A stretch of DNA of 64,000 nt. Source: a virus. Taxonomy: Duplodnaviria > Caudoviricetes. Below are positions 8,431 through 57,858 of this stretch, one piece after another (positions within the stretch are counted from its first letter, which is position 1; the number at the start of each line of letters is the position of its first letter). Made by a program: the position numbers and the translations under genes. The stretch lies in IMG/VR virus record IMGVR_UViG_3300005602_000003, positions 878 through 64,877 of that record. The stretch is one strand, 5' to 3'. The notes under the pieces are model-generated. The model was not told where the DNA came from, made no database searches, and saw only the letters and a program-made list of their open reading frames with translations.

Positions 8431-8732
8431 TCCACCTGTTCCTGCTGGCCTTCTTTTTCTCGCCAGCTCACGCCGCCGACCTGGCGCTCCCCCGCCTATC
8501 GGCGGGCGAGCCCTGCCTCATCCGCCAATCAACCGGCGCCCCGGTCGTCCCTCACCTCTCGCCCGCCCGCCTACCGGCGGGGTGGGCAGTTTGGCCCGAC
8601 AAGACATGCGCGTCCGGCTTCCGCTGGGGCGACGCTGATCGGTGCGACGTGAGCCGTCCGCCTGCGGCGGATAAACCGGCCAAGGTGGTGGACGACGCGA
8701 GTTGTCCGTATGGATGGCGATGGTCCCGCTGA
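8427..8732 (+). CDS. Small secreted protein
   Basis: Signal peptide MIHLFLLAFFFSPAHA; internal repeat DKTCASGFRW / DASCPYGWRW. Confidence 0.6.
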   Translation: MIHLFLLAFFFSPAHAADLALPRLSAGEPCLIRQSTGAPVVPHLSPARLPAGWAVWPDKTCASGFRWGDADRCDVSRPPAADKPAKVVDDASCPYGWRWSR

Positions 8733-8915
8733 CCCGCCTGACGGCGGGTGAAGGCGGCTTGCCAGCCGTAGGCTGGTTCCGCTTCGTCACCCACGACCGC
8801 GTACTCGACTATTTGAATTGTGGGTGGCACATCGCATCTGTTGACCTTGGTCACCATAGCGAGTATGCTGTACTTCTTGAGTGGCTTTGTGCCTGTCCTC
8901 TGAAGGAACCAAAAC

Positions 8916-9290
8916 ATGCCGACCAACGTCGAAGACCTGGCTGAAGGCTTCTCGCCGTTTGCTCCCGCGCCTCCACCCGCCGAACAGGCGGGCAAGCCCA
9001 CTCGCAAAAAGCGTGCGGCCAACAAACCCGCTCCGCAGGCCAAGACTGCCCCGGCGTCCAAGCCCACTCGCGCCCCTCGCGCCCCTCGCGGCAACGGAGG
9101 CACAGGAAAAGGCACCAAGCACCGCCAGTCCAGAGAACTCCGCCTCCCGGTCTCCGCCCTGTTCGATGCCGCGTCTGGCCTCAAGGTGGAGGACGGCAAG
9201 CTGTGCTACGCCATGATCGAGCAGCTTCAAGGCGTGAGCAAGCAGTCGCGGCGGCGGATCGTGAATGCTTTGAATCGCATCTTTTCCTAG
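8916..9290 (+). CDS. Basic Pro/Lys-rich hypothetical protein
   Basis: AAGGA RBS; low-complexity basic N-terminal half. Confidence 0.7.
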   Translation: MPTNVEDLAEGFSPFAPAPPPAEQAGKPTRKKRAANKPAPQAKTAPASKPTRAPRAPRGNGGTGKGTKHRQSRELRLPVSALFDAASGLKVEDGKLCYAMIEQLQGVSKQSRRRIVNALNRIFS

Positions 9291-9574
9291 GCTAGGAGAC
9301 TGCTACGTGACCAAACCAATCAGGGACAGCCTAGGTCGACGCCCCATCACTAACGCGGACATAGATTTTTACAAGCGCTGGAGCGACCTCGGAGAGCAGC
9401 CGCTTTCTCGGCAAGAAGAAGAGATTTTCCGCGAATGGCTGCGCAGCTGATAGAGAGACAGCGAACAGATGGCTAAGCGCCGCAGGGTCACGGTCGAATT
9501 TTCGGCCAAACAACTTCGGATGCTTGATCGCCTCTGCAAGCGTTGGTGGCCGTCGTTATCTGGGGACGAATGAC

Positions 9575-9820
9575 ATGAGCAAGTTTAGAAAAAAGCCGGT
9601 CGTAATCGAGGCGTTCCAGTGGACAGGACAACGGCCGGCCAATTGGCCGGAATGGGCAACAAAGGTCAGGCTGCTTGATGGGCGCGATCTCATTGTTGAC
9701 ACGCTCGAAGGTCGCATGCGTGCCGATCTCGGGGATTGGATCATCAAGGGCGTGAAGGGCGAGCAATATCCCTGCAAGCCCGACATTTTCCTTGCAACCT
9801 ACGAACCGGTCGCAGACTAG
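9575..9820 (+). CDS. Conserved small phage protein, KKPVVIEA family (copy 1)
   Basis: KFRKKPVVIEA...TLEG.M...GDWIIKGVKGEQYPCKPDIF..TY. Confidence 0.85.
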   Translation: MSKFRKKPVVIEAFQWTGQRPANWPEWATKVRLLDGRDLIVDTLEGRMRADLGDWIIKGVKGEQYPCKPDIFLATYEPVAD

Positions 9821-10182
9821 GAGAGAGTGAGATGCGGAAGAACAAGCAAACGAGCTATTGGGTTGTCCTTCCGACCGGAGAACCTTTGCCTGCGACTGAG
9901 AGCGATAACAGTCAAAGCGCCATGGCGAAGGCCATGATGATGGATGTGCCTCACGGATGCCGCGTTGAGGAAAAGTCGCAGACTTCTGCAGAGTGAACCG
10001 ATGATCACAGCCGACGAAATTCCGACCGATCGAGTTAAATTCAAGCTCTGGGCCGACGCCGCCTGCGTCTTGTGGCCCGCCGATCTCCAGGCGCAAGCGT
10101 ATCGCGCATGGGAGAACCCCGACCTCCACCGCGCCGAATTCGTCGAGGCTTATCGTCACTGGCTGGCGATTGTCATGATGAA

Positions 10183-10905
10183 ATGAACGCCCTCGACCTC
10201 CCACCCGCGCTCGACCGCGCATCACCCGCCTGGGGTCCGATGAACAAGCTTCCGCCATTTACCTACACGGGCCTCAACCTGTATGATGACATCTGCCCGC
10301 ATCAGTTCTACCGGAAATTCATCAAGAAGGACATCAAGTATGTCGAGACTCCGCAGATGGCTGCGGGCAACGTCGCCCACCGAGCGCTTGAGTTACGCGT
10401 TGGTCGCGGCGTGCCTCTTCCTGGTGCTCTGGGTCACCTTGAGCCACTAGTCGCTCCGTTCGACGGCAAGGGCGCCAAGGTCGAGGTGAAGCTGGGACTC
10501 ACCGCTACGGGCGGCACGACTGGGCACTTCTCCGACGACACGGCGGGGCGCTGCCGCATTGACGTTTACATGATCTCGGGCACGTCCGCCTATCTGGTTG
10601 ACTGGAAGACGGGCTCGGTGCGGGAGGACCCGTTCGAGCTCGAAGTCCAAGGCTTGTTCCTCAAGGCGCGCTACCACCAGATTCAGACGATCAAGGCGAA
10701 GTACGCGTGGCTCAAGGAAAAGCGATTTGGGCAGGTGCATGACGTATCGGACACCAAGCGGACCTGGGCGCGCGTCACGGGCATCGTGGAGCGGATGAAA
10801 AAGGAACCCTCGCCCGCCGAAGGCGGGTGGGAGAAGCGCCCAGGCGGACTATGTAAGGCGTGGTGCGACGTTTTTGATTGTGAGCACAATGGTCGGCGCA
10901 AATGA
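10183..10905 (+). CDS. PD-(D/E)XK exonuclease (RecB/Cas4-like)
   Basis: CPHQF, GNVAH, RIDV...LVDWKTG, C-terminal Cys cluster. Confidence 0.85.
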   Translation: MNALDLPPALDRASPAWGPMNKLPPFTYTGLNLYDDICPHQFYRKFIKKDIKYVETPQMAAGNVAHRALELRVGRGVPLPGALGHLEPLVAPFDGKGAKVEVKLGLTATGGTTGHFSDDTAGRCRIDVYMISGTSAYLVDWKTGSVREDPFELEVQGLFLKARYHQIQTIKAKYAWLKEKRFGQVHDVSDTKRTWARVTGIVERMKKEPSPAEGGWEKRPGGLCKAWCDVFDCEHNGRRK

Positions 10906-11192
10906 AAACCGAGGAATCCGCGCTCAAAGCCAAATACCGAGCGCACCTCAAGGAACTGGGAGCCTATCGCTTCAGTCCTGTTCAGATGGGCTACGGCATG
11001 CCGACGCTCGATGATCTCGCCTGTCTCCACGGTCGTTTCATTGGCCTAGAGGCCAAAGCGTCAGGGAAAAAGCCGACGCCGCGTCAGATCCAGATCATCA
11101 AGGACATACAGACGGCTGGCGGCGTTGCCTTTTGGTTTGACAGCTACGACGGCTATTTGCTGAACATGCGCGTTCAGGGATTCATTCCGTGA
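10902..11192 (+). CDS. VRR-NUC domain nuclease
   Basis: GRFIGLEAKASGKKPTPRQ...AGGVAF. Confidence 0.9.
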   Translation: MKTEESALKAKYRAHLKELGAYRFSPVQMGYGMPTLDDLACLHGRFIGLEAKASGKKPTPRQIQIIKDIQTAGGVAFWFDSYDGYLLNMRVQGFIP

Positions 11193-11683
11193 AACTGACT
11201 CTGGCCACACTAAAGCGCTACTTGCGTTACGATAAGCGTACCGGCGAGTGGCGATGGCTATGTTCTCCGAATGGAAGGATTGCTGCCGGTTCTCAGGCAG
11301 GGACGGCTAAAAAAGATTTTTACAGACAGATAACTCTTTTTGGAAGAACCTATCAATCTAGCCAACTTGCATGGTTTTATGTTAAAGGTTCTTGGGCCAA
11401 AAGTCACATCGATCATAAAGACGGAAAAATAAGAAACGATCGTTTCTCAAATTTGAGAAAGGCGACGAGAGACCAGAATATTTCTAATTCCAAAATGCGT
11501 AAGGACAACACTTCCGGCTACAAGGGGGTGTACAAAACACATACCCTCGGCAAATGGCAAGCGTGTATTGGACACAAAAACGAGCGAATTTATCTAGGGC
11601 TGTTCACCTCCCCGCAAGCGGCACATCAGGCATATTGTCAGGCTGCAAAAAAATTAAAAAGAGAGTTTGCGCGTTTCCAATGA
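11189..11683 (+). CDS. HNH homing endonuclease with AP2-like domain
   Basis: IDHKDG...ND..SNLR...N, NTSGYKGV, YLGLF; AT-rich relative to its neighbours. Confidence 0.9.
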   Translation: MKLTLATLKRYLRYDKRTGEWRWLCSPNGRIAAGSQAGTAKKDFYRQITLFGRTYQSSQLAWFYVKGSWAKSHIDHKDGKIRNDRFSNLRKATRDQNISNSKMRKDNTSGYKGVYKTHTLGKWQACIGHKNERIYLGLFTSPQAAHQAYCQAAKKLKREFARFQ

Positions 11684-20032: not shown

Positions 20033-20416
20033 CTAAATTCTTCTCCAAGCAATCACGCCGTTTGTCGATCGAGGACGCGTGCGTACCGCGTTCCCGTCAT
20101 TTCCAGATATTGCCAGCACCATCCCGCGCGCCAGCACCTGGATCACTTGGAAAACGTGGTGCGGCAGAACCCCGATGATACCGGGCGCCGGGCCGCTTGC
20201 AGGATTGCCCACGCGTGCCCAGTTGCGTGCCAGTGCCAAACCTGGCGCTCGGATCCCGGTGTGTTGCTGCATCCAAATACCGCACCAGGGGAGGCCGTGT
20301 CCCCGATGGCCTGCCACGCGGTAGGCGTGGTGATGTCCGCCTGTCGGCGGATGATGCCTCGCAAGCGCGGGGCTAGCGCCAAGCACAACAAGCAACAAAA
20401 CGAGCAAAGTCTTCAT
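20033..20416 (-). CDS. Secreted CHAP-like Cys/His peptidase
   Basis: Signal peptide ending SPALA; PWCG, ARNW, HHV and ISGN motifs. Confidence 0.65.
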   Translation of the reverse strand: MKTLLVLLLVVLGASPALARHHPPTGGHHHAYRVAGHRGHGLPWCGIWMQQHTGIRAPGLALARNWARVGNPASGPAPGIIGVLPHHVFQVIQVLARGMVLAISGNDGNAVRTRPRSTNGVIAWRRI

Positions 20417-20497
20417 GATCAGCCTCCCAGCTTGAGGCTGCTAACCAAGATACAAAATGCGGTAGAAATGAGGCCCGCCTATCGGCGGGTAAACCCA

Positions 20498-20857
20498 CTA
20501 GTGAGTCAGATGCGCAAGCAGCGCCCAATGATCGATAGTCCACAGCACCCCTGAGCCAAGTGCGCCGATCACCATCCATCCGATCTTGCCAACTTTGGCG
20601 ATGCCTGTTGCTTCAACGCGCAAGTTATCGAGACGATCGACGGTGGGTTTCATCTGCCCAACGTCCTTTTTCAAATCTCGAACGTCGTAACTGACGGCTT
20701 GAAAATCGTGACTCAGATCTTCGATCTTATCGTAGATTACCTTGCGCCCCTCGGTCGCGTGGTGGTCTTGCGCCTTCCAGTGAGACTCAAAAGCTTCTAC
20801 TTTAGCCGCCAAGCCTGCTACCAGGCGATCGAGCTCGCGATACTCTCCGGGGGCCAT
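20498..20857 (-). CDS. Coiled-coil protein with C-terminal TM helix (lysis/holin region)
   Basis: Heptad region followed by GWMVIGALGSGVLW. Confidence 0.65.
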   Translation of the reverse strand: MAPGEYRELDRLVAGLAAKVEAFESHWKAQDHHATEGRKVIYDKIEDLSHDFQAVSYDVRDLKKDVGQMKPTVDRLDNLRVEATGIAKVGKIGWMVIGALGSGVLWTIDHWALLAHLTH

Positions 20858-20868
20858 TGGGAACTTTC

Positions 20869-21564
20869 TTATTGACTGCTCTTGGTCGCCTGGTCGAATC
20901 CTTGCAAAACGCCCTTGGCGTGTTCGGCCTCGCCTGTGACTTTGACCAGCGCATCTTTGATGCTGTTGGTATTCTGAGTCAACTCGTGGAGGTTGTTCGC
21001 GTTGCGCCGTGCCATGAAAAAACTTCCAAGAGCCACGAGGGCAAAGATGAGATCGGCGAGACCGCTCAACAGTTGCCCCAGGCTCTGCACGTCAGTCTCC
21101 CATAGGCAGCGGTTTGAGCACGATCACGAGCGCGAACGCGTTCTTGCCGGCGCTCGTGGTCTTGATCCTTGCGACCTGGTATCGGTACGGCCCGATTGAG
21201 AACGACACGTTTTCTCGCACGCCTGCTTGCGCGAGCGCGGCCGATGCCCCGGCGACGCTCAGCGGCGGGCTGACTTGCCCCGCGGTCGCGGGACAGGTTG
21301 CCAGAAGGAATAGAAAAGCCCACCTCACGTCGTCGTGGTCCCGTCGTCAGCCGGGAGCGGTTGCTGCAACTGAGCGCTCAAAGCCGCCAAGTTGGTTTGC
21401 AGCGTAGTGATCTGGGCCGCTGTGACCGTCGTGCCTTCGAACAAGCTGTAGATCAGTTGCGCGAACGGTTCCGCGTCCTCGGCGGCAGTGATGACCGTAG
21501 GCCCAATCTGGACCGCCTCGCTGATGACCGACGCGATGGCGGCAAGAATTGTCGTGGGATCCAT
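20869..21564 (-). CDS. Three small lysis-region ORFs (20869-21090, 21092-21328, 21325-21564)
   Basis: Closely packed small ORFs with hydrophobic N-termini. Confidence 0.55.
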
Positions 21565-21597
21565 GGGAAAGTGCTCCTGTTTTTCTGTATGACAGCT

Positions 21598-21978
21598 TCA
21601 GTGGATGCCGTAAGCGGCTTCGATCGCCTGGAACCCGGCGAGCGCACTTTCGGCAGCCGTGATGACGGCGGATGCGCTAAGTGTCGGATTGGCGGCCACG
21701 AACGCATTGGCGGCCTGAATGGCGTTCTCGGCCGTGAGATCGGCGGCCTGCAGCTTGAGGATAATGCTGCGCTGGGCGCAGACGGCTGTCACGGTCGACA
21801 CCGTCCCGGTCCTGCAGAGCGGCAGGTTCCGGTAGGCCACCGCCGCCGAGAGCGCGATGCCGTAGGCACTTTCGACACCGCCGAGCTGGTTGTAATTGAT
21901 CGGGTTCTGAATCTCGCCCGACAAGAGAGCGCACCCGCCTACGGCGGGCAGGAGGAGCAAGGCCAGGAGCTTGCGCAT
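21598..21978 (-). CDS. Lipoprotein (spanin-like candidate)
   Basis: MRKLLALLLLPAVGGC lipobox. Confidence 0.7.
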   Translation of the reverse strand: MRKLLALLLLPAVGGCALLSGEIQNPINYNQLGGVESAYGIALSAAVAYRNLPLCRTGTVSTVTAVCAQRSIILKLQAADLTAENAIQAANAFVAANPTLSASAVITAAESALAGFQAIEAAYGIH

Positions 21979-21991
21979 AGGAGGTGTCCTT

Positions 21992-22297
21992 TCAGGGTTT
22001 CTTGGTGACGGTCGTGTCGATCGTCGAGGTGACGAGGGTCGAGGGGGCGGCATCCGCCACGAGCGGATCGTGGACCACGATGGCGGCCACCTGCCCGGTG
22101 GCGGCGAGCTCGTTGATCTTGGCCATGAGGCGGTTGCCGTAGAGGGACCACAGGAAGGTCCCGACTCCCACGGCAACGCCCGCGTAGGGCGCCCAGGTGG
22201 CGCTGGTGCCGAAACCGGCGTTGATCAGGGCGCCTGACAGGAGCGCGAACGCGAAGCGGATGTAGCGCTGGATGTCGGCCGATGAAGGGGCGTCCAT
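21992..22297 (-). CDS. Putative holin
   Basis: Two TM helices, 101 aa, GGAG RBS, lies upstream of the lipoprotein gene. Confidence 0.6.
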   Translation of the reverse strand: MDAPSSADIQRYIRFAFALLSGALINAGFGTSATWAPYAGVAVGVGTFLWSLYGNRLMAKINELAATGQVAAIVVHDPLVADAAPSTLVTSTIDTTVTKKP

Positions 22298-22395
22298 GAG
22301 TGTCTCCGTTTCGCCTTTGTGCCATAATTCGAGGCGGGTTGTAAACCGGCTTTACCGACAAGCTCGTCACAGCGCGGCGGTCAGCGGCGGGCTCC

Positions 22396-25014
22396 CTACC
22401 CCACCATCGGGAGGAACATCGGCGTGTTGTCGTTGGCTGCGGGGGCGAAGTCGCGTTTGAGCAGGAAGTTAAATTGCGCAAAGCCATAGTAGAGCTGGTA
22501 GGGTGTCGAATTTGGCAATGCCGCCGACAGCAGCGAATATTGACCGCCCCCAGGGAGCACTAGATGTGACGGCACCTTGGAATGAGGGAACAAGCTCGGG
22601 TTTACAAACTGCCCAAAATACGAAGCCATGAATGGTATTCCGTAGTTGACGGCAGGCGAAGCGCTGTTTTTCCACGCGAGCAATCCAGCCTGCAACGCAG
22701 TGTTTGCTGCGGCGCCTGTCCCGCTGCCAGGAGGAACCAAAACCCCAATATTTGTTAGCGTAGTTGCACTTGGCGTCACTGGTTGCGGGGCGCCCTCATA
22801 CCACTCGACCCGCAACGAAACCATTCCTGCTGGTCTTTGGCTATCGAATCCCTCTGCGATCGCTTCCCATGCAGGAAGAATTTCAGACAATAATCCGATC
22901 AAACTGGTTGCATTCGCCGGACCGACCGAAGTGACCCCGGTCCCCGGGCTGACACTTATTGGCGTCGAACCACAGCCACCGTTCGACGCGAATGCGGCAA
23001 TCTGGAATGTCATCGTGGTTACATTAACGAAGCAGTATCCCGTACCCGCCGTGAGTCCGTTGCACACCGTACCGCCAGTCGCTTGAAACACCGCGATCAT
23101 ATTATTGGCGCTGCCAGTTTGAATCGTGGATGTCGCTGAGTAACCATGCGCCGCTGACGTGCTGAATGTGGTTCCTGTCGGGCATGAGAACGTCGTGGCC
23201 GTGCCGGAATTGTACGTCAACGCAGCGACCGTACCCTGTCGAAAGTCATTATCCAGAGACGCGAGTGAGGTGGGATCGCTCGCATTGGACGCGAATGCAG
23301 TTGCTAGTGTTTGTAAAAATGACGCATTGTTGGCAGTTGCCGTGGTGCCCCCGTTAGAGCTTTGGTCGCTGAAATTTGTCCCGGCGGTATAGGGCGCGTA
23401 CCCAATAACATCGACCACGTCGATGGGCCTATTTGGGAAGGTGGTGTAATCGGCGCTCCCGGTGTAGGCACTATAAACGGCGTTTCCTATACCCGTGCTC
23501 GTACCAGATGGCGCCAAATCGTATCCACCCATGCGCCACTTTACCGTCGTCGGCGGATTGGCCTCCGCCTGGGACATCAAGGTCCGACGAACTCTGGACA
23601 TTTGACCAGAACATGCGGCCGGGATGAGCGATCCCATGATCTGAGCAACACGTATTCCGTAGAAATCGTTGTACGGCTGGTTGTTCGCGTTCGGGAATCC
23701 CATCGCCAGACCGCGCTGGAAGGCCCACTGCGTCTCGGGGAAGCCGAAATTCCACAGTTCGTTGGTATATTCCGGCTCATAGAACAGTGTCGATTTCAGG
23801 TTTCCACAGACATACGCCGCCTCCTGCGTTATATAGTTGTTGTTTGCAAGATACGGAATTGTTGCCCACAGATTGACGTTGAGTCCGTTCGCCATGCTAA
23901 CTTGGGCCTCGATCGGAATTGTCCCCGTCAGGCCCCCGGCTTGATATAGCCATTTATTGAGGACGCCGTCGAAAATGAAGGTTGCGTTTCCCACAGCAAC
24001 CGCAGATGCAGACGGCGCGAGGGCGAACATCGTGACGATTGGATACGCAACCCCCCCAACGCATAGCATCGGGGATGTGGTCGTGTTGGCCGAAGACAGC
24101 GAGCCCTGTATTACCGACCCATCACTAGGGGTGCCAGGAGTGTCCGTCGTTGGAGCGGCAGTATATAGCTCTAAACTCCCGCCGGTAGCAGAACAGCCTC
24201 CGCTGCTTGTACTGGAATAGGTAATACTGGAGGACTGAACAGACGGCGGAAAGCGAGGCGAGGTCCAACTCAGGCTGGAAAGCGTAGACCGATAAGCCCA
24301 TTGAACGTCTGTCGATAATCCGGCCGGTCCCGCATCGACCCATCCCATTGGCCGAATGGCTTGTGCGTGAGCACCTTGAAGCGCGGCAATCTGCTCTGGC
24401 GTAAACAAGCCGCGATAATCAACCGCAGGCCCATAAGTGGTATACGCCGTCACATCACTGGCTCTGACGATAGCGAGGCTCGCGGTGCCTGCTGCGCCAT
24501 AGCTTCCGGCGCCGGGAAATTGCAAAGAAAACGTCGATGTTGTCCACGTCATAGAGCCAGCACCGGCCCCACTAATCGTCAGCGTCACATTACCGCCGGT
24601 GCAACCCGACACGCTTCCGCCGGTTCCCGTCAACGAGCAAGACGAGTTTGTTCCGAGATTCACTATTTGAAGTTGCGTTCCCGCCGTCCAGATCGCCGTG
24701 TATTGCGTGCCGGTCCAGAACGTATTGTTGAACGTGATGCTCACAAGCCCTGTAAACGACTGCGTTGGGTAGCCGTTTGCGTCGAGCGCGGCCGTCTGGG
24801 GAGTTGCACCTCCGCTAAATCCCTCTGATCCTACATGCAAAATGTTGATGAAGTCCGCCGGGATCAAATCCCCGCCGCCGAGATTGAGTTGCGCAAACCC
24901 GGAAGCCCCCACAGGCAATCCATGAGGCGGCCATGCATCTGCGTTTGCGCAGCAAACGATCGCTGCTATTTGAAACAGCCTTATCAGGAATGCGTTAAAC
25001 TTAAAATGCATCAT
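22396..25014 (-). CDS. Large exported-type appendage/depolymerase with glycoside-hydrolase-like domain
   Basis: Signal-like N-terminus; IRPMGW, NLWATIPY and YEPEYTNELWNFGF (EYSNEVWN-type GH motif); WYEG; Ser/Thr/Gly-rich. Confidence 0.65.
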   Translation of the reverse strand: MMHFKFNAFLIRLFQIAAIVCCANADAWPPHGLPVGASGFAQLNLGGGDLIPADFINILHVGSEGFSGGATPQTAALDANGYPTQSFTGLVSITFNNTFWTGTQYTAIWTAGTQLQIVNLGTNSSCSLTGTGGSVSGCTGGNVTLTISGAGAGSMTWTTSTFSLQFPGAGSYGAAGTASLAIVRASDVTAYTTYGPAVDYRGLFTPEQIAALQGAHAQAIRPMGWVDAGPAGLSTDVQWAYRSTLSSLSWTSPRFPPSVQSSSITYSSTSSGGCSATGGSLELYTAAPTTDTPGTPSDGSVIQGSLSSANTTTSPMLCVGGVAYPIVTMFALAPSASAVAVGNATFIFDGVLNKWLYQAGGLTGTIPIEAQVSMANGLNVNLWATIPYLANNNYITQEAAYVCGNLKSTLFYEPEYTNELWNFGFPETQWAFQRGLAMGFPNANNQPYNDFYGIRVAQIMGSLIPAACSGQMSRVRRTLMSQAEANPPTTVKWRMGGYDLAPSGTSTGIGNAVYSAYTGSADYTTFPNRPIDVVDVIGYAPYTAGTNFSDQSSNGGTTATANNASFLQTLATAFASNASDPTSLASLDNDFRQGTVAALTYNSGTATTFSCPTGTTFSTSAAHGYSATSTIQTGSANNMIAVFQATGGTVCNGLTAGTGYCFVNVTTMTFQIAAFASNGGCGSTPISVSPGTGVTSVGPANATSLIGLLSEILPAWEAIAEGFDSQRPAGMVSLRVEWYEGAPQPVTPSATTLTNIGVLVPPGSGTGAAANTALQAGLLAWKNSASPAVNYGIPFMASYFGQFVNPSLFPHSKVPSHLVLPGGGQYSLLSAALPNSTPYQLYYGFAQFNFLLKRDFAPAANDNTPMFLPMVG

Positions 25015-25015
25015 C

Positions 25016-26353
25016 TTAGTGGCGTCGCTTCAATTCTTCAATTTGGGCCTGTTGTTCTTGAATCGCGCGCACCAGCAACGGTATCAAGCCGACAAGATCG
25101 ATCCCATTCGGAGTTCCATCCGCGTCGTATCTAGCGAGTTTTGGCAGTACCGCAGCAAAATTCTCCGCAAGAAACCCATATTGCAGCCGCGCTCCGTTGT
25201 CGCCAAATCCCTGCTTGTAAAAATAGTTTCCTGGCGTCAGATCGGCTATCTTGGCCAGCGCACTATCAATCGGCCTCCAATCACGTTTGGCCGCCGCCAT
25301 AGACGATGTCCCGAGACAAATTCCAAGAGTCCCGCTTCCAGCGTACAACTGGCCGGCCGTTGAGTTCCAGCAAAGAGTATTATCAGTTTGTGCGGCGTCG
25401 CTCGTAAGCGCTGGCATTTGGACTGTCTGCGTCCCACCCTTTAGTATCAGAGCGGTTGCCAGGGTATTTTGAGTACCGGAGGCCGCGCTGCTCAACGTCG
25501 TCTTAAACACTACATCCCCGCCGCCTGAGCCGTTGCTTTTTGACCCAGCGACGGTGAACGTTGCGCCAGCGACGTTGGTATTGCCGGCTGATACAGATTG
25601 GGGCTGAATCGTTTGGGCAACAGGAGAGGCCGCATCAGAGGCACCAAACTGAAGCGTAGCGTTCACGGGGGATGTGATAATAGTGCTGCCATTGCGCAGG
25701 CCGTAGCCGCCGCTCGTGTTGGTGAGATTTATCGCCCCACCAGCGCTGCTTGAACTGGACGTGATATTACCGCTCACTCCTATCGAAGACCCAAACGTCC
25801 AACTGCCTCCCGCGGTTATTCCGAAATCGAGTTGGTTTGTTCCTCCAACCAAAACTTCAACATTTCTTGTTGATCCAGTCCCGCCCTTTTGAGTTCCGAT
25901 CGTCAGGACGTTCGTCACGTCCTTAAACCCAAAGACGCCCCGCTCATAGTTGGTGGGGCCCGTCACTGTATCGACCGTGTTGTAAGTATAAAATTCAGAC
26001 GCGGTCGTGCTGTCGGATAAAGCCAACGTGCCCACCCCGGCCCGATTCAGGAAAGTGTCCGAGTTCCAGTTTACGGAAGACCCAGAAACGACAATTACCG
26101 CCGATGATGCCCAGCTACTTCCATCAGGAAAGGTGACTGTCCCGGTAAAGGTGGGAGACGCTGACGTAAACGTCTTCATCGCACTCGGCGTTGTCGTGAC
26201 CGCTGGGTTGGCAGTTTGAAACATCGGAATTTGCTCGGTCCCGCCAAGAGCTGAACCTGCGCTCAGAGCATTAATTGTGGAATCGGCCAATGCAGGGCTT
26301 ATAGTGAAAACGGCAAGGAAGGCGGCTATAGTGATTTTCATGGTTGATCTCAC
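25016..26353 (-). CDS. Tail fibre/spike with C-terminal intramolecular chaperone (peptidase S74-like)
   Basis: TSS...KRD...YGFLAE...P...LIPLLVRAIQEQQAQIEELK; signal peptide ending SPALA. Confidence 0.85.
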   Translation of the reverse strand: MRSTMKITIAAFLAVFTISPALADSTINALSAGSALGGTEQIPMFQTANPAVTTTPSAMKTFTSASPTFTGTVTFPDGSSWASSAVIVVSGSSVNWNSDTFLNRAGVGTLALSDSTTASEFYTYNTVDTVTGPTNYERGVFGFKDVTNVLTIGTQKGGTGSTRNVEVLVGGTNQLDFGITAGGSWTFGSSIGVSGNITSSSSSAGGAINLTNTSGGYGLRNGSTIITSPVNATLQFGASDAASPVAQTIQPQSVSAGNTNVAGATFTVAGSKSNGSGGGDVVFKTTLSSAASGTQNTLATALILKGGTQTVQMPALTSDAAQTDNTLCWNSTAGQLYAGSGTLGICLGTSSMAAAKRDWRPIDSALAKIADLTPGNYFYKQGFGDNGARLQYGFLAENFAAVLPKLARYDADGTPNGIDLVGLIPLLVRAIQEQQAQIEELKRRH

Positions 26354-26574
26354 TTGATTAGGAATTTCGAGCCGGTATTAACGAGCAGCGCTGAACCAGT
26401 GTTGGCCAAAAGGAAGTTGGTGCCCCCACTCGGGCCACCTCCCACCCCACACAGCATCATCCCGCATTGCGCCTTGACGTGCGTAGGCGCAGACAGGAAC
26501 ACCCCCAGGATGGCGACCAGGAGCCATGCCGAGAGGGCGACCGGGGCTAGGGCGAGGATGGCGCGGCGCATCAT
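26350..26574 (-). CDS. Small signal/TM protein with LLxNTGS repeat
   Basis: Long hydrophobic N-terminus; FLLANTGSALLVNTGSKFLI. Confidence 0.6.
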   Translation of the reverse strand: MMRRAILALAPVALSAWLLVAILGVFLSAPTHVKAQCGMMLCGVGGGPSGGTNFLLANTGSALLVNTGSKFLIK

Positions 26575-26608
26575 AGGCCCCCGATGAGTGACGGATGGGG
26601 CATCACGG

Positions 26609-27706
26609 CTATAGCTGGACGTAGGTTAGATTCCCGGACACATAGACGTTCGTGCCGTTGACCATGCAGAACTCGGCGGAAGCTGCACCCTTTGCGATGG
26701 TTCCGGAACCGTTACCGTAGGTCTCGCCGCCGTTTGCGGCGTATGACATGCTGTTGGCGACGTTGGTGGTCGTACTGCCGATGACTGCCGCATTATTGGT
26801 CGCACACGCAGTTCCGGTCCCGGTCGTAAAAGCCACCGTCGTCGCCCCGGCGACCACGTAATGGAGCGCGCAAACATAGATTGTCGTTGAGCCGGACAGA
26901 GCAACGAGTTGTACGGACGAAGTGCCATTTGTGGTGAAGGCCACATTGGTTTTATTGCCATACGCGCACGGATCGTTGCTCACATAGCCAATGAGATTGC
27001 ACGGGCTACTCGTGCAAGCTGGAATTTGAGAGGCGATTAAGGTTGCGAGATTGGAACCGTTCGGTGCGTCGATATGCAAATTCGCGCTGCTGTCGATTTC
27101 CGCATTTTGCACAGTGCCGGTTGCGCCGCCATTCTGTGTTCCCCCCAGCAGCACCGGAGGATTGGCGGCTGCGCTACCGGCTGCCGTGGGGCCAAAGACG
27201 GCACCGGAGGAACCGGAGCCACCGCCGCCTCCACCCGAGCCCGTAGGCAGGCCCGAACCGCCCACCATGTTGACGGTAGTGGTCGAGGTCGACGTGATGC
27301 AGGTGAGCTGCGTGTTGGTGCCGACCGTGAACCCAAACCAGCTATTGGGCGGAATTGGTTGATCGCTAGTCGTAGCCGACGCGCCAAGCTTGCAATACGC
27401 TACGTTGGTGGCCCCGGCGTTGCTGGCCACCACCTCGGCGCCGGCCGGGAGAGTGCCGGTGACGCCGCCGGTCGTAACCGAAATCGGAGTGCCGGTGGTC
27501 TGGGTCGTGCCAGGAAAGCCCGTGATCGAAGCCGAAACCGACGCGCTTACGTATAGCGGATTACCCGAGGCGCAAGGCGCCCACTGGGGGTTCGTCGGCC
27601 CCTGGTAGCAGTAGAGGTTGACTTGTTGCGCTTGCGCCGGAGTCAACCCGCCGCAGGCGGGCAGGAACCAGAGCAGCCCTAGGACTCCGAATACCAGCTT
27701 GCGCAT
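26609..27706 (-). CDS. Ser/Thr/Gly-rich appendage protein with signal peptide
   Basis: True start is MRKLVFGVLGLLWFL...AQAQ (ATG 27706, GAGGA RBS); paired Cys residues. Confidence 0.75.
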   Translation of the reverse strand: MRKLVFGVLGLLWFLPACGGLTPAQAQQVNLYCYQGPTNPQWAPCASGNPLYVSASVSASITGFPGTTQTTGTPISVTTGGVTGTLPAGAEVVASNAGATNVAYCKLGASATTSDQPIPPNSWFGFTVGTNTQLTCITSTSTTTVNMVGGSGLPTGSGGGGGGSGSSGAVFGPTAAGSAAANPPVLLGGTQNGGATGTVQNAEIDSSANLHIDAPNGSNLATLIASQIPACTSSPCNLIGYVSNDPCAYGNKTNVAFTTNGTSSVQLVALSGSTTIYVCALHYVVAGATTVAFTTGTGTACATNNAAVIGSTTTNVANSMSYAANGGETYGNGSGTIAKGAASAEFCMVNGTNVYVSGNLTYVQL

Positions 27707-27717
27707 CGCGCTTCCTC

Positions 27718-28356
27718 TCAGATCGCCCATTGGGCCTTCAACTCGTCGACCGTCATCGGGTCCACGATCGTATTGTTGTCGACGTTGCCGACGATGCCCG
27801 GCACCGTATGCGGCCCGGGGCCGAACGAGTCGCCGTTGTTCTGCCAGAGCCAAGGTGCCTGCCAGCTCTCCTGGACGGTCCAGGTCCTGCTGTACTGCGC
27901 GAGCCACAGCCGGTGCTTGCCAAAATACGGGTCGTTGCCGTCGATCTTCTCCTTGGCGATATTGCCCGAGTAGATCACCGGCATGCGGCCGAGCTTGTCC
28001 TCGATGCGCTCGCAGAAGGCGCGTGCGCTCGACGCCGATGGCGCCGAGCCGTCCGACAGGCTCTCCCAGTCGAGTGCCACCAAGGTCGCGGCATCCGGCT
28101 TGGCGCACGACAGGAAGAAGTCGGCCTCCCCGGCTCCGCCGCCGTGATAGAAGTGGTAGGCGCCCCACAGCAAACCCGCCTTGAGCCCGAACGGCCGCCG
28201 GATCGTGTACATGGCATCGACGTGCCCGGTGCCTTCGCTGGCCTTGTGGATCACGCCGACGTAGCCGGCGCCTGCCACGGCCACGAAGTCGATCGGTTGG
28301 GGCACACTCGAATTGTCGCCCGCGTAGATGTCGATGACGAGAGGCTTATTGGGCAT
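27718..28356 (-). CDS. GH25 muramidase (endolysin)
   Basis: VIDIY, HKASEG, GAYHF, ALDWE, LWLAQY, WLWQ. Confidence 0.92.
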   Translation of the reverse strand: MPNKPLVIDIYAGDNSSVPQPIDFVAVAGAGYVGVIHKASEGTGHVDAMYTIRRPFGLKAGLLWGAYHFYHGGGAGEADFFLSCAKPDAATLVALDWESLSDGSAPSASSARAFCERIEDKLGRMPVIYSGNIAKEKIDGNDPYFGKHRLWLAQYSRTWTVQESWQAPWLWQNNGDSFGPGPHTVPGIVGNVDNNTIVDPMTVDELKAQWAI

Positions 28357-28362
28357 GAGGAT

Positions 28363-30393
28363 CTACCAAGTAAAAGCTGTTATCGCGACAATGTCACCAG
28401 TATTGGCCCCGCTCTCCGTCCAGTAGATGATCTGAGAGGTGACGAGCGCTATCCCCGGCAAAAGCGCACCAAACGCAGTCCCGAACAACGCTCCTGTAGA
28501 GGCGCCCTGTCCTTGTGCCCCAATGCCAGTACCGTCTCCCGCGGCCGTGACGGAGCCGCCATGCGAACTCACTGTTCCAACGATCGCATCCACCGTTTTA
28601 GTAACTGTTGCCGGCACACCCGAAGCTATGGATAGGCTGGTAAGTGTTGCCGACCCAGTCAAGCTTGACGATATGGTCTTCGGCGTCTGATACCAGAATT
28701 TTCGGCTCTGGATCAGACCGACCACGACATGCGCCGACCCGTCAGTCGGCCATATGCCGATAAGCGCCGAGGCAACGTAGCCGCTAGGCATGCTCGCGCC
28801 TGGATAGAGCGTCGAGCAGGCGTTGGTCGCAGCATTGGACCCTAGCACGGCGAACGTCGACCCGTCGCCTTTGGTGATTGAGTAGACGCAAATGAACCCC
28901 GAAGTCGGCGCCGAGCCGGTATCCATTCCATTGGCGCCGGTGTTCGTAATCGTCAACGTATGCGATGCGCTGGCTTCCTTGTAGATCGTGGCTCCCAGCG
29001 AGGTCTCGGTCAGTATCTCGTCAGCCGTAACCGTGAGAGTCGTCGTGCTGCCTTGGACGATCTTGAGATTGCGTGCATCTCCCGCTACGCCTTGAGGACA
29101 AGTTATGGTCGTACTCGCGCCGGAACAGCCGGCGATGGTCAAAGCCCCGGTCAGACCATTGACGGACGAGACCGTGGCGCCGGCAGCGACAGCAGAAACT
29201 GTAGTGTATTTGATCTGCCCCGACGCCGACACGTCTTGGATCATCACCAAATCACTAGCGCCGGGCGTAGCCTTCAGACTCAGGCTTCCGATCGTGAATG
29301 GGGCGTAGTTCGCCGATCCGCTGCTGACGTTGCCCAACAACGAATAGCCGGTCCCGTCCTGGACGATATTGGCGAGAGTAACGAAGTTGGAGCCGCTCAG
29401 TGTCGGCGAACCCGCAATTGTGCCCGATAGCGTAGCGCCGTTGATCGTCTTATTGGTCAAGGTCTGCGATGCCGCCAGCAACGTAACCGTGTCCGTCGCA
29501 GCCGGGAACGTGTATGTGTAGGCGCTGCCGGTCGGGAATGCCAGTGTTGGCGTAGCGGTTCCGGTCGTCGTCAGCGACGCAGCAAGTGTCAACGTGTTGG
29601 AATTGTTATTGACCCCGGTTCCGCCGAAGCCCGGGGCTAAGATAGTCCCTTGCCAGACTCCGGTAGCTATAGTGCCGACAGTCGTTAGCGAAGAATTGAC
29701 CACGTTGCTGGCAAGCGTGGTTCCGGTCAGCGTGTTGGCGGCCACTGACGCGATCCCCGCCGTAGAGATCGAGGTAATCAATCCCTTGTTGTTGACCGTG
29801 ACGATCGGAATGGCGACCGAAGATCCGAAAGTGCCGGTATCGGGGTTGACCGTCGCCAGAGTAGCTGCCGCCGAACCGGGTCCGGTAGCCGTCACGTCTC
29901 CGGTCAGTGCGCTGATCGAGGAGAGCGAACACGTCTGCTGCCCTACTACAGTGCCGTTGACAAAAAGACACGAACCATTGACCGGGCCGCCGTTGATCGG
30001 CGTGGTGCCGAGCGTGATCGTGCTCAAGGAACCAGGAAACGGATAACTGATGCCGTTGATCAGAAAATTGAGCGTCTCGGACGTGGCCCCACCGTAATTC
30101 TGCAGGGAGATTGTCGCGGGAGCCGAGCTGGAAACTGAGAAGCAGAGACTGTTATAGGCGCCGATGATTGGCGCGCTGTTGGCGCATAGCGCAGGACCGC
30201 CATTATTTGTAATTCCAAGACTCGTGAGGCCGTTCGGGTTGGCAGCCGTACCGCCGTCTTGAAGAATCCCGTTACTGGTCCAAACCGGAATGTGCCCCGG
30301 AGTCACGGAACCAGATTGTAAAATTTGAGAATACGCAGGAGGCGCAAGACCCCACAGCGCGAACGCGACAAGAAGGCGCTTGAGCACTTTCAC
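28363..30393 (-). CDS. Tail fibre-like protein with signal peptide
   Basis: MKVLKRLLVAFALWGLAPPAYSQ; fibre motifs LTGDVT, QTLTNKTI, VSSVNGLTGA, GANGMDTGSAP, MPSGYVASALI. Confidence 0.8.
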   Translation of the reverse strand: MKVLKRLLVAFALWGLAPPAYSQILQSGSVTPGHIPVWTSNGILQDGGTAANPNGLTSLGITNNGGPALCANSAPIIGAYNSLCFSVSSSAPATISLQNYGGATSETLNFLINGISYPFPGSLSTITLGTTPINGGPVNGSCLFVNGTVVGQQTCSLSSISALTGDVTATGPGSAAATLATVNPDTGTFGSSVAIPIVTVNNKGLITSISTAGIASVAANTLTGTTLASNVVNSSLTTVGTIATGVWQGTILAPGFGGTGVNNNSNTLTLAASLTTTGTATPTLAFPTGSAYTYTFPAATDTVTLLAASQTLTNKTINGATLSGTIAGSPTLSGSNFVTLANIVQDGTGYSLLGNVSSGSANYAPFTIGSLSLKATPGASDLVMIQDVSASGQIKYTTVSAVAAGATVSSVNGLTGALTIAGCSGASTTITCPQGVAGDARNLKIVQGSTTTLTVTADEILTETSLGATIYKEASASHTLTITNTGANGMDTGSAPTSGFICVYSITKGDGSTFAVLGSNAATNACSTLYPGASMPSGYVASALIGIWPTDGSAHVVVGLIQSRKFWYQTPKTISSSLTGSATLTSLSIASGVPATVTKTVDAIVGTVSSHGGSVTAAGDGTGIGAQGQGASTGALFGTAFGALLPGIALVTSQIIYWTESGANTGDIVAITAFTW

Positions 30394-30680
30394 TTCCTCC
30401 GCACGATCCAGTTCGCGGCGAGCACGAAGCTCGCGTAGATCGACAGGCTGATGATCTGGAACGTGTTGGGATCAGGCGTCTTGAACCAAAGCGCGAAGAC
30501 CGATCCGACCGTGATCAGGGTGAACAGCGACGCCAGGGCCACGAGGGATTTCTGGGAGAGCGTGCGCAGTGCCAGGAAAATGGCGTCCGTGGCGATCTTC
30601 TGCCCTACGGGCTCGACTTGCCCGCCGGCAGGCGGGTCAGCGGGCTCTTCGACCAATTGGAATCGCGCTGGTTCCGCCAT
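30390..30680 (-). CDS. Two-TM membrane protein
   Basis: Two hydrophobic helices. Confidence 0.65.
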   Translation of the reverse strand: MAEPARFQLVEEPADPPAGGQVEPVGQKIATDAIFLALRTLSQKSLVALASLFTLITVGSVFALWFKTPDPNTFQIISLSIYASFVLAANWIVRRK

Positions 30681-39616: not shown

Positions 39617-40552
39617 TCAATACCTACCATACGGGTTGACCACCCTCGATGGACGAGCGGCCTGCGAGCGACGCACCACGCTGTTCTCGTACAGCTTCAT
39701 ATAATACTCAGCCGCGTTTAGATTTTGATAATTCAAGTAGCAAAGATGCGCAGCGTAGTACGCCACGGACTGCGCCCATGGATGCGGCACAGCATCATAA
39801 CTTTGGTCGTCAAGCAAATCAGACGGGGCACACAAACAGTCCCACTGCCACTGAAACTGCTGCGAGGCTAATGGGTACGCATAAATGGAGCCGTCGGAAC
39901 CCTGACCAAATTGTGCAGCGAACGTTGGTACGAACAAATATTGAAACGGAAATTGGGCGACCCGCGCCAAATATTCAGAAAACGCGTAAGTCGGTAAGGC
40001 ATACCTATAGTTGCTGTAGATAATCACCGGATTTGATCGCAGAGCATAAACGTAATCAATGCCAGGCCACCAGCTTTGCACGGGCAGATCGGAAAACTGA
40101 TACACTTCTTGATTAGGTTGCAGCAAATTCATCGGTGACAAGGTCAACGAGATAGAAGCGCCAGTTCCAGTAGGATCGATAATCCCGGCTTGGGGTTGGA
40201 AGTATCCACTACCGCCAAACACGATATCAACCGCGGCAATCGTGCCGCCAAGCAAGATCGCATTGCTCGTCGCCTGGGCACCATTAGGGTACGGAGCGAG
40301 TCCGCTCGGAAAATCCGGTGCGGTGATGCTCACCACTGGTGCGGTATAACCCGTGCCTGGATCAACAACCGTTGCGGACACCACTGATGCGCTTATTGGC
40401 GTCAAACGCCGAATACACTGAGCTCGTTCGGCTACCTCACGGCGGCCCTGATTAATGTATGCAATCAAATCGTCGGGATTCGTCTGCTCCTGCTTCGTAT
40501 CCCGAATCAGTCGTTGCACAAGCTGCATATAGCCAAAAAGGGTTGCCATCAC
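39617..40552 (-). CDS. Head-tail adaptor-like protein
   Basis: LIAYINQGRREVA...W..SVAYYAAHL; paralogous pattern to 41166-41936. Confidence 0.65.
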   Translation of the reverse strand: MMATLFGYMQLVQRLIRDTKQEQTNPDDLIAYINQGRREVAERAQCIRRLTPISASVVSATVVDPGTGYTAPVVSITAPDFPSGLAPYPNGAQATSNAILLGGTIAAVDIVFGGSGYFQPQAGIIDPTGTGASISLTLSPMNLLQPNQEVYQFSDLPVQSWWPGIDYVYALRSNPVIIYSNYRYALPTYAFSEYLARVAQFPFQYLFVPTFAAQFGQGSDGSIYAYPLASQQFQWQWDCLCAPSDLLDDQSYDAVPHPWAQSVAYYAAHLCYLNYQNLNAAEYYMKLYENSVVRRSQAARPSRVVNPYGRY

Positions 40553-41165: not shown

Positions 41166-41936
41166 TCATTGTTGCTCGCCTCTCGGCTGCAGCCCCATCT
41201 TATTTGTCTGCGCAACATCTTGCGCTTGAGAATACATATAACGCAGCACAGATGGATTGGAATTCCTGCGCGCATTAGCCATGAACTGCCGATAATGTTC
41301 CGAATACATTCTTGCCGCCTGTGCCTCGCGCTCCGAAGTCTGCGAAGACATAAGCGCGTAGTACGCCGAAAGAAAGCTAACGGCGTCGGTCCAAAAATAT
41401 GAAAGTGCTTCGACCGTCGAATCATCAACGAGTGCGATCGGATACGCCGAACAGTCGCAATTCAGCGTATAGACCGCGTCCGGGATCGGGTCGACATAGA
41501 AGCTTCCCGTCCCCTTCGTACCAGCGCCCCCGCCAACTCCGGGATCAGCCGCGCCCTGGGAAAACTGGCTCCAATGTCGTGGCTGCCCGCTCGAAGGCAC
41601 CGGGTTGTTCAGATAGTACGTGAAAAACCAGGGCCACTCACGCGCGTACACCTGCTTCTGTCCGGTACCGACCGAGAAATTGATCTGCTGGACGTTGATC
41701 GCCCCCTGAATGCCAGTGGTCGCTGCAACTCCGAAGCTGATCTGGTCAAAATTGTACGCCCGCTGCCCAACGACGGTCTGAATCGTGCCCATGGCGCGAA
41801 TCGCCTCGGCTTCGCCGGCCACCTGCCCGCGTGCCGTGTTGATCCAAGTCGTGAGGTTGGCAGTCGAATAGAGGGTGCTAGGCGCCCCAGGGTTCTGGAG
41901 CAACGACTGCGTCGCCGCCAAATACGCATTCAGCAC
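41166..41936 (-). CDS. Head-tail adaptor-like protein
   Basis: LTTWINTARGQVA...PIPDAVY...WTDAVSFLSAYYA. Confidence 0.65.
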   Translation of the reverse strand: MLNAYLAATQSLLQNPGAPSTLYSTANLTTWINTARGQVAGEAEAIRAMGTIQTVVGQRAYNFDQISFGVAATTGIQGAINVQQINFSVGTGQKQVYAREWPWFFTYYLNNPVPSSGQPRHWSQFSQGAADPGVGGGAGTKGTGSFYVDPIPDAVYTLNCDCSAYPIALVDDSTVEALSYFWTDAVSFLSAYYALMSSQTSEREAQAARMYSEHYRQFMANARRNSNPSVLRYMYSQAQDVAQTNKMGLQPRGEQQ

Positions 41937-53482: not shown

Positions 53483-53863
53483 CTATCTAACTTTTCGGTC
53501 AAGGTTGCCATGACAGTCGTATCCTACACCTGTGGCAGAAATAGTCACCGGGATCGAAACGAACTTCGCCGCCAATTCTTCGGCCCGCCTTTTCAATTCT
53601 GTCCGGCGGCGCGCAGTCATAGGCCGCCATTGCAAGCTAGAATTGCACGCCCCGTTCGAATGTGGCTGCTTCCCCACGTCGTTTACATAGGTGACGTGCG
53701 GCTCTTTCGTCAGTTGCCAAACAGGTCCAACGTACGCATCCTGAGCCCACCAAGCAGAGCTATACGACGGCTCCAGACCATACGAGCATTTGATCTCGAT
53801 CTCGGAACCGTCGCGTGGAGCCGAATTCATGTCCTGCCACGCGTTGCCACCAAAGATGCTCAC
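53483..53863 (-). CDS. DUF551-like phage protein
   Basis: WQDMNSAPRDGSEI...QWRPM. Confidence 0.6.
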   Translation of the reverse strand: MSIFGGNAWQDMNSAPRDGSEIEIKCSYGLEPSYSSAWWAQDAYVGPVWQLTKEPHVTYVNDVGKQPHSNGACNSSLQWRPMTARRRTELKRRAEELAAKFVSIPVTISATGVGYDCHGNLDRKVR

Positions 53864-55299: not shown

Positions 55300-55468
55300 T
55301 TCCTGATTGTAAATCGGCGCACAAGAAAAGGGACGCCCGTGAACAAGACGCCAATCGTTATCGCGCCAAGAGCGCTACGATAATTTCCGTCATATATACG
55401 CGCCGCGGCCCACCCCCACGACATAGACCCTGTCATGGCCGCCCGAAAGATACTGAACTCTCGCTCCG

Positions 55469-56257: not shown

Positions 56258-56343
56258 CGATCCCCTCCTGCGTGTCTTAAGGAAGCGGATCTTTGCTTCC
56301 CGTCTCTGTGTCCGCCAGTTTGTAGTCACTTTTACTACCGGTG

Positions 56344-57857: not shown

Positions 57858-57858
57858 C

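Follow-up and report, generated by a model that had tools for sequence, protein, structure and literature searches.

In the usual teaching, tailed phages are assembled in the cytoplasm, where classical tail fibers also fold, and phage signal peptides are tied to lysis and exclusion proteins. How are fiber-type phage proteins that begin with Sec-type leaders to be understood? This question is raised by the viral record IMGVR_UViG_3300005602_000003 (Duplodnaviria; Caudoviricetes). We analyzed a window of 64,000 nt, corresponding to bases 878–64877 of one 64,877-bp contig and, therefore, to nearly the whole phage genome; coordinates refer to this window unless another contig is named. Between positions 22396 and 30393, five genes, here called A to E, surround a gene for a GH25 endolysin. 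All five lie on the minus strand and encode the basic-hydrophobic-AxA leaders with the N-termini quoted in an initial annotation of this DNA. Our analysis makes export of the A–E products highly probable. The further step, attachment of the fiber-type proteins A and D to virions, is evenly balanced on the genetic evidence.

A leader-bearing late block

Gene A (28363–30393, minus strand; 676 aa) comprises a Sec-type leader, an N-domain, fiber repeats and a C-terminal tip domain. The GH25 endolysin gene (27718–28356, minus strand) is placed between A and B. It is followed by B (26609–27706; 365 aa when read from an inner ATG of a longer frame), encoding a leader and two predicted jelly rolls, C (26350–26574; 74 aa), with a leader or membrane anchor, D (25016–26341; 441 aa), with a leader, a fiber N-terminal motif, a fiber body and an S74 chaperone, and E (22396–25014; 872 aa), with a leader, a predicted GH-A-type barrel carrying inserted beta domains and a disordered C-terminal tail. 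Neighboring genes are separated by gaps of 1–34 nt or overlap, and promoter-like and terminator-like sites in the window did not exceed those in shuffled sequences. A–E constitute a single tight late block that ends at the lysis genes.

Leaders were called throughout by a home-made heuristic combined with reading of the sequences. We took as a signal peptide a basic n-region followed by an uncharged hydrophobic h-region (7–20 residues), with small residues at positions −3 and −1. The strict test kept this last requirement, demanded a net positive charge in the n-region and set the minimum for the uncharged h-region at 9 residues that average 1.8 or more on the Kyte-Doolittle scale. All five proteins passed the strict test, with C borderline because of its very long h-region. 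Across the window, nine of 83 open reading frames (ORFs) were flagged. Seven of these fall among the 14 ORFs at 20033–30680, and the two flagged among the other 69 are doubtful small ORFs (Fisher p = 2.5e-5). The heuristic is not permissive, because among 79 IMG/VR fibers that share the central motif of D it flagged five and left 67 unflagged, with seven truncated; the 67 unflagged fibers start with classical fiber N-termini.

The leader-proximal starts are credible. The GTG start of A overlaps the stop codon of the upstream gene and has GGAGGAA directly before it, and the ATG of B is preceded by GAGAGGAAG. The initial annotation had allowed for true starts downstream of the leaders; the start context of A and B speaks against this, as does the conservation of the leaders among homologs. 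For B, a leader was present in 116 of 119 non-self homologs among the matches listed and in 51 of 53 loci on IMG/VR viral contigs, the other two being one called leaderless and one truncated. At the apparently leaderless B locus of contig L171, the leader is present at an inner start. The corresponding fraction for D was 93 of 119 non-self homologs by the strict test. E homologs carried a leader in 12 of 19 cases by the strict test and in 13 of 19 by inspection; one call of the heuristic was a false positive, and in one homolog the N-terminus was called too long, with the leader behind it. When A was searched against 1.84 billion representatives, 3,811 matches were returned. Among the best 150 of these, proteins with the N-terminal domain of A (QxVQQSGxVTPGH...) almost all bear a leader immediately before that domain, and those whose similarity is confined to the central repeats or to the tip at the C-terminus mostly start as ordinary leaderless fibers. 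Leaders, thus, appear to be kept as a property while their sequences diverge, as expected for a trait under selection.

The predicted cleavage point coincides with the place where leaderless homologs begin. In the N-terminal alignment of D relatives, leader-bearing members read ...ALA/DSTINALSAG..., ...AWA/DSTINALSAG... or ...ALA/ADSTVAALTA... (slash, predicted cut), while leaderless members read M-ADSTVHNLTDG..., M-ANSTLANLTAAS... or M-ANLPISGLTASAS..., with the start methionine in the column just before the predicted cleavage point. A comparable arrangement exists for A. Leaderless proteins of 160–174 aa begin with MTVTQSGLVTPNH, MPSILQSGQVTPGH or MGAVLQSGAATPGH, share the N-terminal motif of ~28 residues with the mature A-type fiber and are encoded directly upstream of a leader-bearing A-like fiber in related contigs (L081 17881–18405, L082 18126–18608, L117 11848–12336 and L171 9027–9515). 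No gene for such a leaderless protein was found in the window. Given both the methionine position and the 160–174-aa proteins, the leader can be viewed as an add-on before a motif that otherwise stands at the protein start. Such a pattern favors both cleavage of the leader and a common role of the N-terminal motif in docking.

AxA-type sites are kept across the families, and their middle residue is often W or F, for which no start codon is possible. Codon 18 of D (26288–26290), two codons before the predicted cleavage site, is a TTG from which translation would yield MADSTIN, the N-terminus type of leaderless homologs. No Shine-Dalgarno sequence was found before it and homologs often have W or F there, making a downstream TTG start in D unlikely.

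The cysteine pattern points to the same compartment as the leaders. The initial annotation had remarked on closely paired cysteines, and we found an even number in each mature part (A, 8; B, 10; C, 2; D, 2; E, 10), mostly as close pairs; the 1015-aa and 551-aa virion proteins of the phage have none. Even, non-zero counts recur in 112 of 116 leader-bearing B homologs and in all 42 complete B genes from IMG/VR. For D, they were found in 89 of 93 leader-bearing versus 11 of 26 leaderless homologs and, for A, in 43 of 60 leader-bearing versus 24 of 89 leaderless homologs (16 with no cysteine); the homologs without a leader are poor in cysteine. Binomial and Fisher tests on parity overstate independence, as relatives share ancestry. 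Even numbers of paired cysteines are the pattern of disulfide-bonded proteins from an oxidizing compartment, and the even counts in leader-bearing mature parts suggest such a compartment here. The cysteine pairs of the exported proteins are, hence, very likely oxidized in the periplasm. Taken together, leader conservation, even cysteine counts and the alignment of methionine with the cleavage site lend strong support to the earlier proposal of export and disulfide bonding outside the cytoplasm.

Predicted identities of the leader-bearing proteins

The collective label of tail-fiber or appendage genes, under which the locus had been annotated, suits A and D, which are fiber-type, but not E, a predicted GH-A glycosidase, B, a jelly-roll protein, or the small protein C. 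B, C and E had no match to annotated tail fibers, and no paralogs of A, B, D or E were found in the window.

A has a leader of ~22 aa with predicted cleavage after AYS, followed by an N-domain of ~115 aa that begins with QILQSGSVTPGH and contains a cysteine pair invariant in the alignment. It matched the tail-fiber family phrog_11518 (1.9e-13), and its residues 426–566 are 40–50% identical to annotated tail fibers or tail proteins in 39 phage records, with relatives in Burkholderia (including BcepMu gp52), Ralstonia and Yersinia phages. None of these 39 records covers the A N-terminus. We conclude from these matches that A is of the fiber type and that its tip has been exchanged with true virion fibers. 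A single-protein scan of IMG/VR with A matched only the promiscuous central fiber repeat. For profile scanning of the N-domain, alignment A1 was too diverse and alignment A2 was used; the scan of representative genomes recovered only three loci. An ESM Atlas look-up of residues 1–140 gave scores of at most 0.87, to be taken as leads only. PHROG, family and paralog scans of the window found no fiber-like genes other than A and D.

D combines a 19-aa leader (ALA/D) and a classical tail-fiber N-terminal motif with a C-terminal Peptidase_S74 domain (PF13884; residues 351–402, 1e-10, 42.2 bits against a gathering cut-off of 22), which bears out the S74-like chaperone noted initially. A match to phrog_18186 (8.1e-9) was also obtained; the single-protein scan of IMG/VR with D gave no match. 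The intramolecular chaperone would extend from the putative cleavage residue Ser347 to the protein end (25019–25303, minus strand). Alignment A5 shows almost no variation at Ser347 and Lys352, which are five residues apart, in line with the catalytic spacing SDxxxK given in the consulted part of PMC10769870, with Met instead of Asp as the residue after Ser. Just before them lies the nearly invariant pair Cys324/Cys342. D is, thus, best described as a fiber-type protein with an S74 chaperone and putative self-cleavage.

The leader of E ends in ANADA/W. The protein matched no Pfam, PHROG or NCBIfam entry and no PDB sequence, and a Foldseek comparison with the PDB yielded weak rows only, none at E ≤ 1e-3. 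Its structural model (predicted local distance difference test score (pLDDT) 81), which includes large inserted beta domains, aligned in VIA-align with the GH51 enzyme 1pz2_A (Z 21.6; 341 residues aligned; root mean square deviation 4.2), followed by 2vrk_A (Z 21.6), 3ug3_A (Z 21.0) and members of GH39, GH79, GH53 and GH5 down to Z 16. The top 50 rows are almost all GH-A-type glycosidase barrels, plus Klotho proteins. N417-E418 and Y738-E739-G740 (P0001 numbering; add one for the 872-aa ORF) do not vary among 20 sequences. In a clan GH-A enzyme, an NE motif would provide the acid/base Glu and a later Glu the nucleophile, on strands 4 and 7 of the barrel, which makes E418 and E739 the candidate residues. 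The model identifies E as a predicted clan GH-A (beta/alpha)8 glycosidase to which no single family can be assigned. The C-terminal tail encoded at 22396–22470 (NFLLKRD..P..NDN.P...) is conserved and predicted to be disordered in five of 20 family members, and its motif was absent from all other proteins and loci retrieved. A role of this tail in docking or sorting is conceivable.

In B, cleavage is predicted after AQA, leaving a mature part with the 10 cysteines. The model (pLDDT 76) contains two jelly-roll beta-sandwich domains connected by a Gly-rich linker, suggesting a two-jelly-roll protein rather than a fiber. Fold matches were middling and tied: the best was to an archaeal-virus turret protein (Z 8.3), and XepA, YomS and Ena pilins scored Z 7.4–7.9 alongside many unrelated jelly rolls (XepA/YomS structures 6i56_D, Z 7.4, and 6i5o_A, Z 7.5; no sequence match). 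Among 112 BFVD matches, most are uncharacterized phage proteins, and relatives of B were present in 71 viral loci of IMG/VR. The LPAC sequence in the leader had suggested a lipoprotein, a candidate that we rejected because homologs lack the cysteine there. C has an RR-containing n-region and a hydrophobic stretch of ~24 residues ending in VKA/Q, followed by CGMMLC, and could have either a cleaved leader or a membrane anchor. Other small leader-bearing ORFs of 73–84 aa, unrelated to it in sequence, occur in the same module of relatives.

The phage, its relatives and its lysis region

The 1015-aa protein encoded upstream of the block led to six related viral contigs of 44–66 kb, and a seventh relative, L117, was added by the D search. 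In all six relatives that cover the region (L081, L082, L083, L085, L086 and L117), a leader-bearing A-like fiber follows the large proteins, and the continuation of the seventh relative, L171, contains a leader-bearing A-like fiber as well. The modules of relatives comprise two to seven leader-bearing ORFs, including B-like, D-like and E-like genes. Outside this group, two alphaproteobacterial prophages from metagenome-assembled genomes (MAGs) differ in their head module but have a similar leader-bearing cluster, located between terminase and portal. The trait extends to hundreds of homologs and to several phage lineages.

Several features of individual contigs are also worth recording. Twin-arginine-like leaders (SRRRLLIS or SRRQVLLG) precede a 595-aa protein in L082 (15483–17270), beta-helix-like as judged from its sequence, and a 311-aa protein in L088 (11397–12332). 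The twin-arginine (Tat) route may, therefore, serve some of these phages for the export of folded proteins; since such leaders appear in two modules of the same type, the destination compartment and not the export route may be what is selected. The clusters of the two MAG prophages (L088 6693–12332 and L089 7376–11475) have four to five leader-bearing ORFs at an unusual place for appendage genes and include a Pectate-lyase-like spike and a protein with a QSGSVTAGH motif. In the low-GC phage contig L165 (GC 0.36), positions 7856–10495 encode an 879-aa leader-bearing fiber with eight cysteines next to a leaderless beta-helix spike, indicating that the trait is not confined to high-GC soil phages.

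The contig is the genome of an uncultured soil phage, judging from its phage gene content and from the only sequencing run found to hold the region, a soil metagenome that may be its source; no RNA run was listed. Its first 100 bases are identical to its last 100. Besides the late genes, the window encodes a primase, a PolA-type polymerase, a helicase, a major head protein and a serine recombinase; no tRNA genes were found in it. Megablast of the A–E region against cultured phages gave no DNA-level match, and for the capsid protein the only matches were two metagenomic phages, at ~35% identity. A weak SU10-adaptor match, the presence of large proteins (222, 551 and 1015 aa) and the lack of recognizable tube or sheath genes in the window suggest a short-tailed, podovirus-type phage. 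The adaptor-like 311-aa protein (39617–40552) and a 256-aa tail protein (41166–41936) have similar C-terminal domains and cross-match in tblastn at 24–36% identity in relatives.

Base composition sets part of the block apart. GC content at third codon positions (GC3) is 0.56–0.71 in A, B, D and E versus 0.75–0.90 in surrounding late genes, with C at 0.76, which hints at a separate origin or different constraints.

The gene immediately upstream of A, which runs into the A start (30390–30680, minus strand), encodes a 96-aa protein with an acidic N-terminus and two predicted membrane helices that is translationally coupled to A. Counterparts occupy the same position in L082, L084, L085 and L086. 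It may be an ejection protein, a holin-like protein or an assembly factor.

At the other end, just after E, the lysis block opens with a holin-like gene (21992–22297, minus strand; Phage_holin_10, 2.3e-4, 21.5 bits with a cut-off of 27). Next comes a candidate lipoprotein beginning MRKLLALLLLPAVGGC... (21598–21921, minus strand), a possible spanin component whose lipobox was read from the sequence and which has no family match. The GH25 endolysin itself (Glyco_hydro_25, 1.3e-22; endolysin PHROGs) was not flagged by the leader test and is of the canonical, holin-dependent type. A 127-aa protein (20033–20416, minus strand; TIGR02594-like, 38.2 bits with a cut-off of 70.55) was flagged, with a clean leader ALA/R, and is predicted to be a sixth exported late protein.

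Elsewhere in the window, a host-like block at 53860–60164, which may modify surface polysaccharide, contains genes for a tetratricopeptide repeat protein, a nucleotide-sugar epimerase (1.8e-72) and a STELLO-like glycosyltransferase; the serine recombinase gene (55469–56347) lies near it. Two HNH endonuclease genes are located at 11189–11683, just before and overlapping the helicase gene, and at 60149–60607.

Possible docking at lysis or release

A model that accommodates these observations would begin with A, B, D, E and probably C being sent through Sec by their leaders. Signal peptidase I would cut after the AxA-type sites, the paired cysteines would be oxidized in the periplasm, and D would trimerize via its S74 chaperone before cleaving itself at Ser347. 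Assembly of capsid–tail particles would proceed in the cytoplasm. Once the inner membrane has been opened by the holin, with the outer membrane still intact, cytoplasmic and periplasmic contents would mix, and A and D would dock on the tail through their N-terminal motifs, the same motifs that follow the methionine in leaderless homologs. E, which lacks an anchor domain, and perhaps B would more likely be released as free enzymes or binders of envelope polysaccharides. Of the explanations considered, periplasm-bound late proteins with docking of A and D at lysis account best for the data, and we would give this scheme an even chance of being correct.

Docking of A and D is favored by virion-type N-terminal motifs exactly at the mature ends, by the lack of any other fiber-like gene found in the window and by the organization as one tight late block that ends at lysis genes. 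For A, its conserved fiber position in relatives and the homology of its tip to annotated virion fibers add to this. Late addition of fibers or spikes to finished particles is known in vitro from T4 and P22.

Extended to whole lineages of soil phages, the idea becomes more tentative, and we hold it at slightly less than even: these phages would route their host-recognition gear via Sec or Tat, and fibers would mature in the periplasm and be fitted after holin opening. The leaderless 160–174-aa proteins would then be cytoplasmic occupants of, or partners for, the fiber docking site. If this is true, the last virion assembly step lies outside the cytoplasm and lysis timing is part of morphogenesis.

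A number of points weigh against docking at lysis. The phage is uncultured, and export and attachment of A and D are predicted from its genes. The literature searched, from which subscription journals were largely absent, contained no report of leader-bearing tail fibers in tailed phages and no precedent for tailed-phage fibers added from the periplasm. PBSX XepA is exported late and absent from particles, according to the consulted part of PMC6834076. Attachment after lysis would compete with dilution, and a mixing window before outer-membrane rupture is assumed. B and C have no recognizable virion-binding part, and the barrel of E begins at approximately residue 37, leaving no N-terminal anchor domain. 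The low GC3 of the fiber genes fits acquired accessory genes, the podovirus-type call is built on weak matches (SU10 adaptor, 6.8e-4, below the cut-off), and homolog counts are not independent events, given shared ancestry.

Several of these points fit a second reading, less probable but a serious contender, in which the proteins are exported, accumulate in the periplasm and escape at lysis without ever becoming part of the virion. As free factors, they would cut or mask polysaccharide receptors on the dying cell and its neighbors, loosen the matrix or aid lysis. E fits such a role as a leader-bearing GH-A glycosidase without an anchor domain, as does B with a two-beta-sandwich layout like that of the exported XepA, albeit at a Z score of only 7.4. 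XepA itself sets an example of export without incorporation into particles (PMC6834076, part consulted), and free depolymerase activity around plaques is described in the portion of PMC6116005 available. The sugar-modifying genes of the phage (epimerase and STELLO-like glycosyltransferase), the position of the alphaproteobacterial prophage cluster between terminase and portal, outside the tail block, and the lower GC3, which suggests acquired genes, can be read in the same way. Release does not readily account, however, for virion fiber motifs retained by A and D exactly at the mature N-terminus, for the fiber position of A in six of six relatives or for the lack of another receptor-binding candidate found in the genome; moreover, the phage's own particles would face competition from free fibers for receptors.

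Much less probable is a role in lysogenic conversion, with adhesins shown on the host surface by a prophage in the manner of Bdellovibrio MAT fibers. In these, a signal peptide precedes a conserved N-domain (~130 aa) and the fiber ends in a tip of the S74 or another type, as described in the consulted part of PMC10769870; in addition, the phage has a serine recombinase, and related clusters reside in prophages of MAGs. Conversion genes would, however, hardly be expected with near-touching or overlapping ends in a late block between internal virion proteins and lysis genes, where no promoter signal rose above shuffles and no outer-membrane route is encoded nearby. The A N-domain was, furthermore, found in only three representative-genome loci, as opposed to 71 viral loci for B relatives.

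Least probable are N-termini that represent uncleaved anchors, tail-insertion helices or wrong starts with true starts downstream, dual starts included: the unusually long hydrophobic stretch of C (~24 residues) and the D codon 18 TTG leading to MADSTIN would suit them, but AxA-type sites are kept, W or F between small residues cannot start a protein, a Shine-Dalgarno sequence is missing at the D TTG and strong at the A leader start, even cysteine counts indicate an oxidizing compartment and the methionine of leaderless homologs sits at the cleavage site.

The two leading readings differ in their consequences. If A and D join virions, a new assembly route would link Sec, DsbA and lysis timing to infectivity, offer new host resistance targets and explain a possible failure of cytoplasmic fiber expression. 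If the proteins stay free, phages would release receptor binders and glycosidases, with bearing on superinfection, progeny loss and biofilm ecology. In either case, leaders and disulfides deserve a check both in annotation pipelines and when receptor-binding proteins are designed.

Compared to known systems, D resembles classical S74 fibers and tailspikes, such as the K1F endosialidase and the T5 L-shaped fiber, in its S74 domain and Ser/Lys spacing, and A resembles BcepMu gp52-type fibers in a tip that is 40–50% identical to annotated tail fibers. Classical fibers are Met-first proteins with zero to three cysteines, whereas A and D have a predicted cleavable leader before the same motif and conserved cysteine pairs. 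The leaderless state usual for tail fibers, present in 67 of 72 IMG/VR fibers with complete N-termini, is absent from both. E shares with clan GH-A (GH51, GH39, GH79, GH5 and GH53) the predicted (beta/alpha)8 fold (Z 21.6 to 16), and its invariant NE and E motifs may correspond to the catalytic residues of the clan. It differs in matching no family, in the large beta domains inserted into it and in its conserved tail at the C-terminus.

Among tailed-phage proteins, signal peptides have also been described for spanins and exclusion lipoproteins. Outside phages, the Bdellovibrio MAT fibers are alike in architecture, with a signal peptide, a beta-rich N-domain and a trimeric fiber ending in an S74 or other tip; they are cellular genes of a predatory bacterium, in contrast to A–E in a phage late operon beside lysis genes (PMC10769870, as far as consulted). 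PBSX XepA and SPbeta YomS are late proteins encoded beside lysis genes and exported, with two beta-sandwich domains and a linker as predicted for B; XepA, however, comes from a Gram-positive host and is reported to be absent from particles, and the fold match of B is middling (Z 7.4–7.5; PMC6834076, part consulted). A parallel for the leaders is found among endolysins, for which tailed-phage signal peptides are described (Lys44 and SAR types) in the available portion of PMC6116005. There, fOg44 Lys44 and P1 Lyz are late proteins that use host Sec before lysis, as the leader-bearing A–E products would, but Lys44 and SAR endolysins are wall hydrolases with a leader, whereas in the present phage the GH25 endolysin is leaderless and it is the fiber-type and accessory proteins that bear the leaders.

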